This document shows, piece by piece, positions 4,092 to 14,475 of a DNA stretch of 34,473 nt. The DNA is taken from NCBI GenBank assembly GCA_010031285.1, contig RHAY01000001.1, positions 1-34,473 on the forward strand. Direction: 5' to 3'. The position numbers and the translations under genes are program-made. Positions within the stretch are counted from its first letter, which is position 1. Each line of letters opens with the position of its first letter. This DNA is from Methylophilaceae bacterium. GTDB taxonomy: Bacteria; Pseudomonadota; Gammaproteobacteria; Burkholderiales; Methylophilaceae. Below the pieces are notes generated by a model, which searched no databases, had not been told where the DNA came from, and worked only from the letters and a program-made list of their open reading frames with translations.

Positions 4092-4482
4092 ATGATGTTT
4101 GATACTAATTATGACTTAAAAGATGAAGGTGAAACACTTCGTTTGGCAGAAAACATGGCAGGCTATTTATGCCCTGGTATGAATTTATATCTAAAGGGCG
4201 AATTAGGCGCTGGTAAAACTAGAGCCTTATAGTTTTGATAAATTTACCATTTATCACTTTGATCTTTATCGCTTTAAAGATGAAATTGAATGGGATGATG
4301 CCGGATTTAGAGAGTACTTTAATAATTCATCTATTTGCTTAGTTGAATGGCCTGAAAAAGCAGGGCATATTCTTCCTGATCCTGACATTTTAATTGAGCT
4401 TTCTCATGCATCTCATGGTCGACATCTTCATTTAGTTGGATACACATCAATAGGAGTTGAATGTTTAAAAACTATCATCTAA
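4092..4482 (+). pseudogene. tsaE: tRNA threonylcarbamoyladenosine biosynthesis ATPase, broken by an internal deletion/frameshift (possible assembly error)
   Basis: ATG 4092 reads ...LKGELGAGKT, then stop TAG 4230-4232. A second frame from 4222 reads EPYSFDKFTIYHFDLYRF...LVEWPEKAG...* (TAA 4480-4482). The conserved VKSPTYTLV segment is absent. Confidence 0.88.
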
Positions 4483-5700
4483 AAGTTTTTTTTGTTCTAA
4501 TTTGGGTACTTTTTCCTCATCACATTGTTGCAAAAAATTTGATTGAATCTGCCAGAGTTTGGCCTGCGAGAGAATATACGCGGATAACTCTTGAATCCCT
4601 TAAGCCTATTAGCAATGATCAAATGATTTTAAAAAATCCAGATCGCTTAGTAATTGATCTTCATGACATTGAAGTTAACGATGATTTAAAAAATTTAAGT
4701 ACAAAAATATTATCAAGCGATCCTAATATTAAGCAAATTCGTGTTGCTAAATTTAATAGCCAAGTATCAAGAGTTGTCATTGAGCTTAGAGCTGAATCTA
4801 AAATCAATATCTTTTCTCTAAAGCCTGCAGGAACTTATAAGCACCGATTAGTGATTGATGTATATCCCAGAATTGATGAATTGATGGCATTTGTTCAAGA
4901 TAAGGAAAGAAAAGATCTAACACCGTCTAAAAAAGATAATGTTTCGTCATCTCAGAAACTAATAAAGAAAAAGTAGTTCAGGAATTGTCAACATTACAAC
5001 CCAATAAAGGCCAAAGTAAGAAAATCGTGATTGCCATTGATGCAGGTCATGGCGGTGAAGATTCCGGAGCAAGAGGGGCATCTGGTAGTTTAGAAAAAAA
5101 TATTACTTTATCAATTGCTAAAAAACTTAAAAAAGAAATTGATAATGACGAACAACTTAGAGCGGTGCTAACACGGGATGATGACTATTTCGTGCCGCTG
5201 CATGGTCGTGTAGTAAAAGCAAGAAAATTAAAGGCGGATATTTTTGTTTCTATTCATGCTGATGCTTTTACCAATCCCGATGCTAAAGGTTCTTCTGTAT
5301 TTGCATTGTCTGAAAGCGGAGCGACTTCTGCTTCAGCCAGATATTTAGCTAATAAAGAAAATGAATAAGTTTGGATGATAAAGATCCAATGTTAGCAAAA
5401 ACTTTGCTTGATTTATCTCAATCAGCAACTATTAATGACAGTGTAAAACTTGGAAATTTTGTTTTGGATCAGCTAGGCGATATCAATGATCTACATAAAT
5501 CAAATGTCGAACAAGCTGGCTTTGCAGTTCTTAAATCTCCTGATATTCCATCTATTCTTGTTGAGACAGCTTTTATTAGCAACCCAAAAGAAGAGCAGAT
5601 TTTAAATAATGAAGAGCACCAAGAAATTTTAGCTAAAAATATTTTGATTGGTATAAAAAAATATTTATCTTCAAATCCCAATATTGCTAAGAATTTTTAA
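4461..5700 (+). pseudogene. amiC: N-acetylmuramoyl-L-alanine amidase AmiC (AMIN + Amidase_3), split into three frames (possible assembly error)
   Basis: 4461-4976: signal peptide + AMIN (RVWPAREYTR, NPDRLVID). 4985-5368: IDAGHGGED, EKNITL, FVSIHADA. 5371-5700: QAGFAVLKSPDIPSILVETAFISN. Two frame changes, near 4940-4975 and at 5366. Confidence 0.88.
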
Positions 5701-10568: not shown

Positions 10569-10697
10569 ATCTAGATTTGTCAACTTTATACAGTATTAAA
10601 AAACAATGGCTTAAGATAAGATATTATTACTAGGCATTTTCCAAAAAGTGCTTTATTAATCTAAAAAACTCGAACGATCATTTTGAAAGGTTATTCG

Positions 10698-12530
10698 TTG
10701 AAATTTGTTAGAGCAGCGCTTTTAAGTTTATTGATTCTCATTATTACGGGCTGCGCTTCTATGGATTCTATATCACTAGATTCGCTCTCTTTAGACAAGT
10801 TATCGTTGCCTAAGCTTCCATCATTCAAATTTGGCTCAGATGAACAATGGGCTTCATATGGCAAAAATCTTACCAATCAACGTTTTTCAACTTTAACTCA
10901 AATTAATAAGGATAACGTAAATAATCTTGAGCTCGCATGGAAATTTAAATCAGGTGTTGCTGCTACATTTCAAGCATCTCCGTTGGTAATTAATAATGTA
11001 ATGTTCGTAAGTCTTCCTCATAACCATGTTGTTGCCTTAGATGCAAAAACAGGCAAAGAAATATGGCGTTATAGCCATAAAAAAAGGGATAACTGGAGAA
11101 TGTGTTGCGGACCTGCTAATCGAGGGTTAGCTTATTCGAGTAACAAAATTTTTATAGGTACTGTTGACGCAAGACTCATTGCTTTAGATGCAAAAACAGG
11201 AAAAAAAATCTGGGATATCGATGTTGCTGATAATGATAATAAATTTGAAAGTAGCAATTCACTAAGCCAGTCCGATAGCAAGAGCCAAAAAGACGTTTAT
11301 GGCCAAACGGGTGTGGGTATTGCTATGGCGCCAGTGACCTTTAAAGATATGGTTATTGTTGGTATTACGGGTGTTGGATACGGCCTTCATGTTGATACGC
11401 CCCGACCTGATGCGCCATTAGGTGCTGTGATTGGGGTTGATGGTCGGTTTGGCCGTCCAGGATTTTTAGCAGCATATAACATTCAAACGGGTAAGCGTAT
11501 TTGGCAATTCGATACAATTCCCTCAGAAGGCTGGGAAGGAAAATATAGAGAAACGATTGAAGACAATATTTCTTTAAATCGCAACATTGCTCAAGAAAAA
11601 GAAAACCTTAAAAACAATAAAGACGCTTGGAAATTTGGAGGTGGCTCTGCATGGAGCACTCCAGCCATCGATGAAGATGCAAATATTTTATATTTTGGCA
11701 CTGGTAATCCTTCACCACAAATGAATGACACATCAAGGCCTGGAGATAATTTATATACAGTTTCTCTCGTGGCTCTTGATGCAACGTCAGGAAAATTAAA
11801 ATGGTTTTACCAGCAAGTGCCCCATGATGTTTGGGGGTATGACGTAGCGAGTCCTCCCGTATTGTTTGATTATAAAAAAGAGGGGAAAACAATTCCGGCT
11901 ATAGGTCAGGCTAGTAAAACTGGTTGGTATTACATTCATAATCGCATTACTGGCGAACTTATTACAAAAACAGAACCATTTGTGCCACAAAAAAATCTTT
12001 TTGCAAAAGCGACAACTGAGGGGACAGTTATATATCCTGGAATATTAGGGGGAGCTAATTGGGGACCAACTTCACTAGACGAAAAAAATCAGATCGTATT
12101 TGTTTCAGCAATTCATGCACCTATCAAATATACATTGGTCGATGAACCAGCGCATGATGATTTGCCTGCAATCAGATATGCATCTTCTGAGCCAACACAA
12201 GATGAACGATGGGGCTTGCTTTCCGCAATTGATTTAAATACTAAGAAAATTAAGTGGCAGGTTAAAACACCGCAACCATTAACGGGAGGATTATTAGCCA
12301 CCGAAGGTAATCTTGTATTTATGGGTGAAGGAAATGGAAATTTTAATGCTTACGATACAAAAACAGGAAAGTTGCTCTGGACAAATAAAGTTGATGCCGG
12401 CGTTAATGCACCGCCTATCAGTTATGAAATTGAAGGTACACAATATATTGCGGTTGCTGCGGGCGGTAATTCTATTTTTGGATTTAAAGAGGGTGACAAC
12501 ATCCTAGTCTATAAACTTAAAAAAATATAA
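10698..12530 (+). CDS. PQQ-dependent alcohol/methanol dehydrogenase-family beta-propeller lipoprotein with an atypical active site
   Basis: Lipobox ITGC; QINKDNV..L..AW, CCGPANRG, Trp-docking repeats (ALDAKTGK.IW), GGGSAW, YFGTGNPSP, RPGDNLY, PHDVWGYD and QYIAVAAGG. TTG 10698 has AAAGG upstream at 10686-10690; alternative TTG start at 10683. Confidence 0.88.
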   Translation: MKFVRAALLSLLILIITGCASMDSISLDSLSLDKLSLPKLPSFKFGSDEQWASYGKNLTNQRFSTLTQINKDNVNNLELAWKFKSGVAATFQASPLVINNVMFVSLPHNHVVALDAKTGKEIWRYSHKKRDNWRMCCGPANRGLAYSSNKIFIGTVDARLIALDAKTGKKIWDIDVADNDNKFESSNSLSQSDSKSQKDVYGQTGVGIAMAPVTFKDMVIVGITGVGYGLHVDTPRPDAPLGAVIGVDGRFGRPGFLAAYNIQTGKRIWQFDTIPSEGWEGKYRETIEDNISLNRNIAQEKENLKNNKDAWKFGGGSAWSTPAIDEDANILYFGTGNPSPQMNDTSRPGDNLYTVSLVALDATSGKLKWFYQQVPHDVWGYDVASPPVLFDYKKEGKTIPAIGQASKTGWYYIHNRITGELITKTEPFVPQKNLFAKATTEGTVIYPGILGGANWGPTSLDEKNQIVFVSAIHAPIKYTLVDEPAHDDLPAIRYASSEPTQDERWGLLSAIDLNTKKIKWQVKTPQPLTGGLLATEGNLVFMGEGNGNFNAYDTKTGKLLWTNKVDAGVNAPPISYEIEGTQYIAVAAGGNSIFGFKEGDNILVYKLKKI

Positions 12531-14270: not shown

Positions 14271-14346
14271 TGGCGTCCCCAAGGGGAGTCGAACCCCTGT
14301 TCCCTCCGTGAAAGGGAGGTGTCCTAGGCCTCTAGACGATGGGGAC
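14271..14346 (-). tRNA. tRNA-Glu(TTC)
   Basis: GTCCCCATCGTCTAGAGGCCTAGGACACCTCCCTTTCACGGAGGGAACAGGGGTTCGACTCCCCTTGGGGACGCCA; 76 nt, anticodon TTC, CCA encoded. Confidence 0.97.
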
Positions 14347-14399
14347 CTAAGAAAAGAAGGTGCTATTCTACTATAGAACAGCGTTTGATATAAGTTATT

Positions 14400-14475
<76 letters not shown>

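Follow-up and report, generated by a model that had tools for sequence, protein, structure and literature searches.

Type I dehydrogenases that depend on pyrroloquinoline quinone (PQQ), i.e. the alcohol and methanol dehydrogenases MxaF, XoxF, ExaA, and ExaF/PedH, are recognized by a catalytic Asp, a metal-ligand Glu and Asn, a stacking Trp, a vicinal Cys-Cys pair, a PQQ-binding Arg, and a linked cytochrome c. The vicinal disulfide acts in electron transfer to the cytochrome. According to 10.1101/2020.02.25.964783, the catalytic Asp is D303 in MxaF and the La3+ of XoxF1 is bound by four protein ligands (Glu192, Asn276, Asp318, and Asp320); a D-x-D motif defines the lanthanide enzymes (XoxF/ExaF/PedH) in PMC11996626. 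Streamlined pelagic Methylophilaceae are described with a single quinoprotein, XoxF4-1, in PMC6028718 and PMC6794327. Here we analyzed a stretch of 34,473 nucleotides (the window) of Methylophilaceae contig RHAY01000001.1 (assembly GCA_010031285.1), in which an open reading frame (ORF) at positions 10698-12530 of the plus strand encodes a further quinoprotein. The clade to which it belongs is a real, conserved variant within the PQQ quinoprotein family; it falls outside the alcohol, methanol, and lanthanide dehydrogenases by the criteria applied here, and we infer its function below. The protein probably binds PQQ and has left ordinary alcohol respiration.

A quinoprotein clade with a remodelled active site

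The ORF is intact and encodes, in a single open frame, a predicted lipoprotein of 610 residues; its start codon is TTG at 10698, with an in-frame alternative TTG at 10683. The product matches PF01011 (E = 3e-102), and its AlphaFold model (mean predicted local distance difference test score, pLDDT, 80.6), used for the fold only (active-site loops at pLDDT 49-70), retrieved PedH, XoxF, quinohaemoprotein alcohol dehydrogenase, and MxaF with Foldseek (best E = 1e-40). PF01011 and the solved quinoproteins thus place it in the PQQ-dehydrogenase superfamily, with an eight-bladed β-propeller. Membership in narrower families was not supported: the product scored 430 bits with TIGR03075 (methanol/ethanol family), under the curated cut-off of 480, and 339 bits with TIGR04528 (acido-empty quinoproteins of hosts without PQQ synthesis, cut-off 650), and its hosts have pqqC. 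The ESM Atlas returned generic PQQ clusters only, and databases label clade members as glucose, alcohol, or quinohaemoprotein dehydrogenases. The features of the gene are as follows.

10698..12530, plus strand: ORF for an eight-bladed PQQ-dehydrogenase-type β-propeller of the W-G-x-D clade (PF01011, TIGR03075, model)
10698..10754, plus strand: predicted lipoprotein signal peptide ending at Cys19, followed by a low-confidence linker (sequence; pLDDT below 50 for residues 18-56)
11103..11108, plus strand: vicinal Cys136-Cys137, kept (sequence, alignment)
11121, plus strand: Arg142, PQQ-binding Arg, kept (sequence, alignment)
11241..11309, plus strand: insertion 1, about 23 residues (182-204), with conserved Glu184 and Asp193, absent from intact relatives (alignments)
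11373..11456, plus strand: insertion 2, 23 residues within 226-253, a predicted β-hairpin with His231 and Asp/Glu233 (model, alignments)
11376..11378, plus strand: Gly227, codon GGA, at the metal-ligand Glu position in the MAFFT register (alignments)
11652..11654, plus strand: Trp319, PQQ-stacking position, kept (alignments)
11706..11708, plus strand: Asn337, metal-ligand Asn, kept (alignments)
11835..11837, plus strand: Gly380 in place of the catalytic Asp, codon GGG (every alignment)
11841..11843, plus strand: Asp382, the position two residues after the catalytic one (Asp+2), invariant in the clade (37/37 tree rows, 78/78 alignment rows)

An earlier reading of this DNA, made from its letters alone (the original prediction), had reported a quinoprotein that keeps the vicinal cysteines, the Arg, the Trp, and the Asn and that has Gly in place of both the metal-ligand Glu and the catalytic Asp; we found all of these motifs, and both Gly codons, at the positions listed. 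We take Trp319 to be the residue that stacks on PQQ, and the roles of the other PQQ-contact positions, apart from the catalytic Asp and the La ligands, are likewise presumed. The exchange of the catalytic Asp for Gly380 is unambiguous in every alignment. For the metal Glu (Glu177 in MxaF), the claim held in that no conserved acid stands at the site, whereas the exact residue depends on the alignment register: MAFFT places Gly227 there, and hhalign and phmmer, run against PedH, place Arg250, an ambiguity that arises because the 23-residue insertion lies within that loop. Position 227 is Gly in 58/59 main-clade sequences and position 250 varies freely (Q/R/N/S, with E in 4/59), so that neither register yields a conserved acid.

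Two further claims fared less well. Gln92, at the Glu55 position, is indeed Gln, but it is no anomaly, since the solved and active PedH has the same Gln (6zcv alignment), and we rejected it as part of the active-site remodelling. The kept Asp+2 had been taken as a lanthanide-type mark; this second Asp is present, but the motif reads G-Y-D rather than D-x-D and only two of the four La ligands remain. A count of lanthanide enzymes by the Asp+2 rule would wrongly include the clade. A fused haem c (CxxCH), which marks the type II quinohaemoprotein alcohol dehydrogenases, occurs in 0/37 clade rows, longer fused forms having had no separate search.

Sequencing error and strain-specific decay were ruled out. 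One contig from an independent river run covers the gene and differs from it at 6 positions, all of them outside the two Gly codons; the original prediction had already held that the codon of Gly380 is no single base-call error. Both positions are always Gly in 24 aligned genes, with codons that vary synonymously, and the ratio of nonsynonymous to synonymous substitution rates (dN/dS) is 0.027-0.063 in 14/14 within-genus pairs. The gene is under purifying selection, not decaying. It is kept in genomes of 1.2-1.3 Mb, and 175/200 Methylophilaceae genomes have a match (E up to 1e-85; motifs not read one by one). In places it is dispensable, because it was not found in complete genomes G057, G082, G097, and G118, nor in 7/9 of genus g32, and because its frame is split in L050, L052, and L087.

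We built a tree from 73 selected rows and 559 columns filled in at least 60% of the rows, excluding the insertions and keeping the two trait columns (quick search, LG+G4, support from the Shimodaira-Hasegawa-like approximate likelihood ratio test only). The gene falls on one branch of 37 rows (support 98), all of which carry both insertions and Asp+2; the catalytic position is Gly in 34 and Asp in none, and the Glu position is Gly in 31 and Glu in 3. The 36 rows outside this clade differ: the catalytic Asp is present in 34, an acid (Glu or Asp) occupies the metal position in 34, and the insertions are found in none. The phylogeny and dN/dS, which the original prediction had named as checks, thus bear out its distinct, conserved subfamily in a streamlined methylotroph, with Gly conserved across orthologues. 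In a 169-row alignment (including some duplicate genes), 12 variants of the motif account for every row: 163 rows read W-G-Y-D and 6, which are sister or XoxF rows, have Asp. Two sequences outside the clade and without insertions, P0135 and P0157, independently have Gly at the catalytic Asp.

Beyond Methylophilaceae, the clade is present in 14 other families of the order (38 genomes, of which 37 were read and confirmed) and in 7/400 genomes of a phylum-wide sample. The vicinal disulfide is kept in 29/37 clade rows. It is absent from 101/101 members of a Methylobacterium subfamily (L123-L125, P0272-P0371), the largest disulfide-less group, which has Lys at the Thr159 position. Several genomes (G284, G458, G521, G835) hold two divergent paralogues. 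Four deep members (P0127, P0132, P0144, and L092) lack both the disulfide and the catalytic Asp, three of them keep the metal-position Glu, and P0144 has a Cys-Cys pair in the metal-Glu loop instead. At L071:4609-17745 (G284), four PQQ-propeller genes lie within 13 kb: two are clade paralogues, a third is XoxF-like, keeps the catalytic Asp, and has Gly in place of both the metal Glu and Asp+2, and the fourth lacks the disulfide.

Along with the losses, a set of polar residues has become fixed in the main clade: His231 (59/59), an acid at 233 (58/59), Glu184 (57/59), Gln341 (56/59), and also Tyr494. Glu184, His231, and Asp/Glu233 may be replacement residues, with Asp193 as another candidate acid; the original prediction had noted neither the insertions nor these residues. 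His231 is missing from five members of a paralogous subgroup, each of which has His140, a residue that precedes the PQQ-binding Arg by two, and the 14 disulfide-less members all have Lys209; from the alignments, these two residues appear to be compensations in their subgroups.

Comparison with known quinoproteins

The closest relatives form an intact sister group (L030-L032, L049, L051, L127-L156; TIGR03075 over its cut-off for L049), which is 36-43% identical to the clade and shares with it a short propeller, the Cys-Cys pair, a Lys at the Arg331 position, and Asp+2. In contrast to the clade, the sister retains the Glu and D-x-D and is free of the insertions; a cytochrome c or sulfocyanin gene lies next to it, and some of its hosts are pqqC-negative. 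The best solved matches are PedH/ExaF (6zcv, 6zcw) and ExaA (1flg), with E = 3e-73 by sequence and, with Foldseek, E = 1e-40, TM (template modelling) score 0.69, and 28% identity. The gene product shares with them the Gln at the Glu55 position, Cys-Cys, Trp, and Asn, and with PedH also Asp+2, but it lacks the metal Glu and catalytic Asp, has two lid insertions, is a predicted lipoprotein, and has no adjacent pedF. The type II enzymes (1kb0, 1kv9, 1yiq) have the same propeller domain and, we assume, the same Lys at the Arg331 position; the haem c domain with its CxxCH and the catalytic acids are missing from the gene product.

PqqT, which we take to have a solute-binding-protein fold and no propeller, is a functional analogue only. 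The likeness lies in the job proposed for PqqT of Methylobacterium extorquens in PMC12124388, that of holding PQQ in the periplasm of a producer. XoxF4, XoxF5, and MxaF have the fold and the PQQ-site residues in common with the gene product, which lacks two of the four La ligands and any xoxJG linkage; its identity to XoxF4, about 30%, is just under the 31% cut-off given in PMC6028718. MexAM1_META1p4973, described in PMC7391723 as the fifth putative PQQ-dependent alcohol dehydrogenase of M. extorquens AM1 and as having no methanol phenotype, is also an orphan quinoprotein in a methylotroph, a likeness by description. No Methylorubrum name was among the 120 matches listed in the search for clade relatives.

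Link to PQQ synthesis and gene neighbourhoods

Of 400 sampled genomes of the order, 107 had pqqC and 45 had the gene, and all 45 carriers were pqqC-positive (one with pqqC split over two contigs), whereas the gene was found in 0/293 pqqC-negative genomes. Carriers in the phylum sample had pqqC in 7/7 cases, so that all 52 carriers tested have it. As a control, we searched 80 of the 293 pqqC-negative genomes and found 6 with a TIGR03075 match and 3 with an intact sister enzyme. Because kin are not independent, the co-occurrence is a pattern, not a test. The gene is not tied to XoxF, since XoxF-like matches (E up to 1e-120, which may miss some) were found in 22/38 non-Methylophilaceae carriers and in 20/58 non-carriers; a dedicated XoxF accessory was considered and is unsupported by these threshold-limited counts. 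A TIGR03863 binding protein, used as a proxy for a known PQQ binder but not equated with PqqT, occurs in six alphaproteobacterial carriers.

The absence of a cytochrome partner from the window, noted in the original prediction, extends to the clade. A c-type cytochrome gene lies within 1.2 kb of the intact sister in 31/32 loci, the sole miss having a 156 bp flank, and two further sister loci carry a sulfocyanin gene in its place. The sister-type cytochrome is beside 0/71 clade loci (4 with less than 1 kb of downstream flank), and another CxxCHG ORF lies within 1.2 kb in 2/71, a pattern that is blind to other haem motifs. Most clade loci are orphans among unrelated genes. Across 40 loci, using a rough gene caller and with 95 neighbours scanned in Pfam, we found no recurring catabolic neighbour, and hence no conserved catabolic operon that would hint at a substrate. 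In many Burkholderiales, including pqqC-negative genomes, the intact sister (L127-L156) belongs to a conserved operon of ankyrin, dehydrogenase, and cytochrome c genes.

Immediately upstream of the clade gene in L047, L055, L066, and L091 is a solute-binding protein gene, and its homologues follow pedF in annotated plasmids, which is the place of PedG according to PMC12997753. We found 22 PedG-like genes in 71 genomes: 19 adjoin a pedF-type cytochrome gene and the remaining 3 are directly upstream of a clade gene, each as a second copy in its genome. This pairing needs two origins on the tree, in two separate lineages; a PedG/MxaJ-type chaperone gene without its cytochrome has been recruited beside the clade gene at least twice. 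In L071, a different MxaJ-like gene lies between the two clade paralogues. The Methylophilaceae members lack this kind of neighbour, and a PedG match was found in 0/6. As MxaJ loads PQQ into MxaF (PMC12276312), the chaperone pairing and the missing cytochrome suggest a clade protein that is loaded with PQQ and has no acceptor of its own. The predicted complex of the L047 clade protein with the upstream PedG-like protein scored 0.00, which weighs neither way. At one locus with a CxxCHG ORF (G775, L157:4294-12969), the clade gene lies inside a full quinoprotein operon with an intact dehydrogenase, a MxaJ-cytochrome c fusion, a TIGR03866 propeller, and a SoxYZ-like carrier.

The source genome is Candidatus Methylopumilus-like, with genes 92-93% identical in Ca. 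Methylopumilus universalis. In the assembly, which is 68% complete, there are also fragments of a XoxF4-like gene, genes resembling xoxJ and xoxG (named from sequence), and pqqC. Two complete genomes of the genus have exactly two PF01011 genes, XoxF4 and this gene. In the window, the ORF is flanked by a divergent mnmC-like gene on one side and by a pseudouridine synthase gene downstream. A promoter scan found 4 sites where 11 were expected by chance, none before the gene on its strand. Fifteen runs recorded as RNA contain the gene; the 4 examined consist of contigs that extend over neighbouring genes and intergenic DNA without distinction, and therefore do not demonstrate expression. Two tRNA genes (tRNA-Glu and tRNA-Ala, minus strand, 14271-14475) have very high depth in these RNA-labelled runs. 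Elsewhere in the window, amiC is in three pieces (4461-5700), with a 1-base and a 19-base deletion relative to L037, which suggests an assembly error or a pseudogene.

In several Methylophilaceae genera (L159, L162, L163, L165, L022), the gene is divergent from an extracytoplasmic function (ECF) sigma/anti-sigma pair or a CarH-like regulator, and in four of these loci genes for cyclopropane synthase and lipocalin come next. We assume that this set is a light or singlet-oxygen stress cluster, and the neighbourhood may reflect no more than synteny. The gene adjoins msrB in one locus (L160) and a ferritin-like gene in another (L086).

Possible functions of the clade protein

We tentatively favour, as a plausible rather than a secure reading, that this exported PQQ-fold protein is a PQQ-loaded periplasmic holder of PQQ producers that stands outside alcohol respiration. 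PQQ would still bind through the kept positions Gln92, Arg142, Thr224, Ser317, Trp319, and Lys407, and a cation may still bridge it to Asn337 and Asp382; with half of the lanthanide ligands gone, the protein would compete only weakly with XoxF for lanthanide. The two insertions would form a lid over the cofactor. The held PQQ would neither leak through the outer membrane nor react with amines, and could serve as a reserve or redox buffer. A loose lipobox pattern is present in 94/120 close homologues, and the Ala at +2 would, by the Escherichia coli rule as we assume it to apply, suggest sorting to the outer membrane. This reading fits best because catalysis, the acceptor, and sometimes the disulfide have been dropped, because the gene is confined to producers, because the protein has a predicted lipid anchor and a long linker, and because PQQ diffuses away. 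Loss of PQQ by diffusion, and its retention by the periplasmic binder PqqT in producers, are described in PMC12124388.

Several observations weigh against a holder. His231, the acid at 233, Glu184, and Gln341 are fixed like catalytic-site residues, Asn337 and Asp382 are invariant, and the invariant Gly at both lost positions suggests room for a specific ligand, not drift. Divergent paralogue pairs are expected of enzymes with different substrates, a site that has a lid and is loaded by a chaperone is at least as natural in an enzyme as in a store that has to release PQQ, and the G775 gene sits within its full quinoprotein operon. Moreover, cytochromes can act in trans, the cytochrome linkage of the sister is one inherited operon among kin that are not independent, and six alphaproteobacterial carriers also have the TIGR03863 binding protein.

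The strongest rival, which we consider possible, is a rebuilt, active quinoprotein that uses a new His-x-acid motif. The original prediction had offered both kinds of function, a different chemistry and a non-catalytic PQQ binder, and each is compatible with our results. In the rebuilt enzyme, Asp382 would take over from the lost Glu as the only carboxylate to bind the metal in a Ca-type metal-PQQ site, the two Gly would make space for a large pocket beneath the lid, and the new base would be His231 paired with the acid at 233 (or Glu184). A His is the base in soluble glucose dehydrogenase. The substrate would be no small alcohol, but perhaps an amine (methylamine), a thiol, a hydrated aldehyde, or a bulky polyol, and electrons would pass to a cytochrome whose gene lies elsewhere, or to a different acceptor. 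The same invariant residues (His231, acid 233, Glu184, Asn337, Asp382, and both Gly) argue for such an enzyme, as do the disulfide kept in 29/37 clade rows, the presence of His140 in all five members without His231 and of Lys209 in all 14 without the disulfide, the paralogue pairs, the dedicated PedG copies, and the G775 operon. An amine substrate would also agree with the use of methylamine by pelagic Methylophilaceae without known pathways, reported in PMC6794327, although that literature gap is the sole basis of the amine link. Further points against an enzyme are that nearly all loci are without a linked or fused acceptor, that none of the 40 loci shows a recurring catabolic neighbour, and that one subfamily has lost the disulfide in 101/101 members.

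A periplasmic sensor, in which PQQ (alone or with metal or alcohol) shifts the lid and signals to a membrane histidine kinase regulating quinoprotein genes, as proposed for apo-XoxF, seems unlikely. A histidine kinase/response regulator pair does adjoin the gene in L047, L055, and L071, and a catalytically inactive XoxF1 keeps its regulatory effect according to 10.1101/2020.02.25.964783. However, this is the case in 3 of about 45 wide loci and in none of the Methylophilaceae loci read, the window included, and such pairs commonly control just the neighbouring operon. Less probable still is a lanthanide store or a protein delivering lanthanide to XoxF: Asp+2 and the Asn are invariant, Asp320 recruits La in XoxF1 (same source), and XoxF4 is present alongside the gene in the complete Methylopumilus-like genomes checked, but two of the four La ligands are gone and a XoxF-like match was found in only 22/38 non-Methylophilaceae carriers, against 20/58 non-carriers, with a threshold that may miss some. 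A decaying or selectively neutral relic, which the missing genes and split frames described above might suggest, is very improbable and is refuted for this lineage by the dN/dS values and by retention in 1.2-1.3 Mb genomes and 175/200 family genomes.

A search that covered papers outside subscription yielded none that, judged by its title or the opening of its abstract, deals with the clade; members of the clade may figure as minor or unknown groups in Figure 5 of PMC8561711 (active-site residues of Methylobacterium quinoproteins) or in the supplementary trees of PMC11996626. It is likely, in our view, that the clade is a first family of quinoproteins that are pseudoenzymes or have been re-purposed, loaded with PQQ by its own chaperone and off the cytochrome chain, which either banks PQQ at the outer membrane or performs new His-based chemistry, possibly the missing methylamine-oxidizing step of Methylopumilus and OM43.

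In summary, streamlined pelagic Methylophilaceae have a second quinoprotein under strong selection, just below the identity cut-off of one survey. If the protein is a PQQ holder, it would show how abundant oligotrophs retain a costly, leaky cofactor and would be a pseudoenzyme in a family with none described in the literature searched; if it is catalytically active, PQQ chemistry that dispenses with the universal Asp base would be new, and the protein would be a candidate for the unexplained use of methylamine. With relatives in cultured Methylotenera, Methylobacillus, and Methylobacterium, the function of the clade is directly testable.

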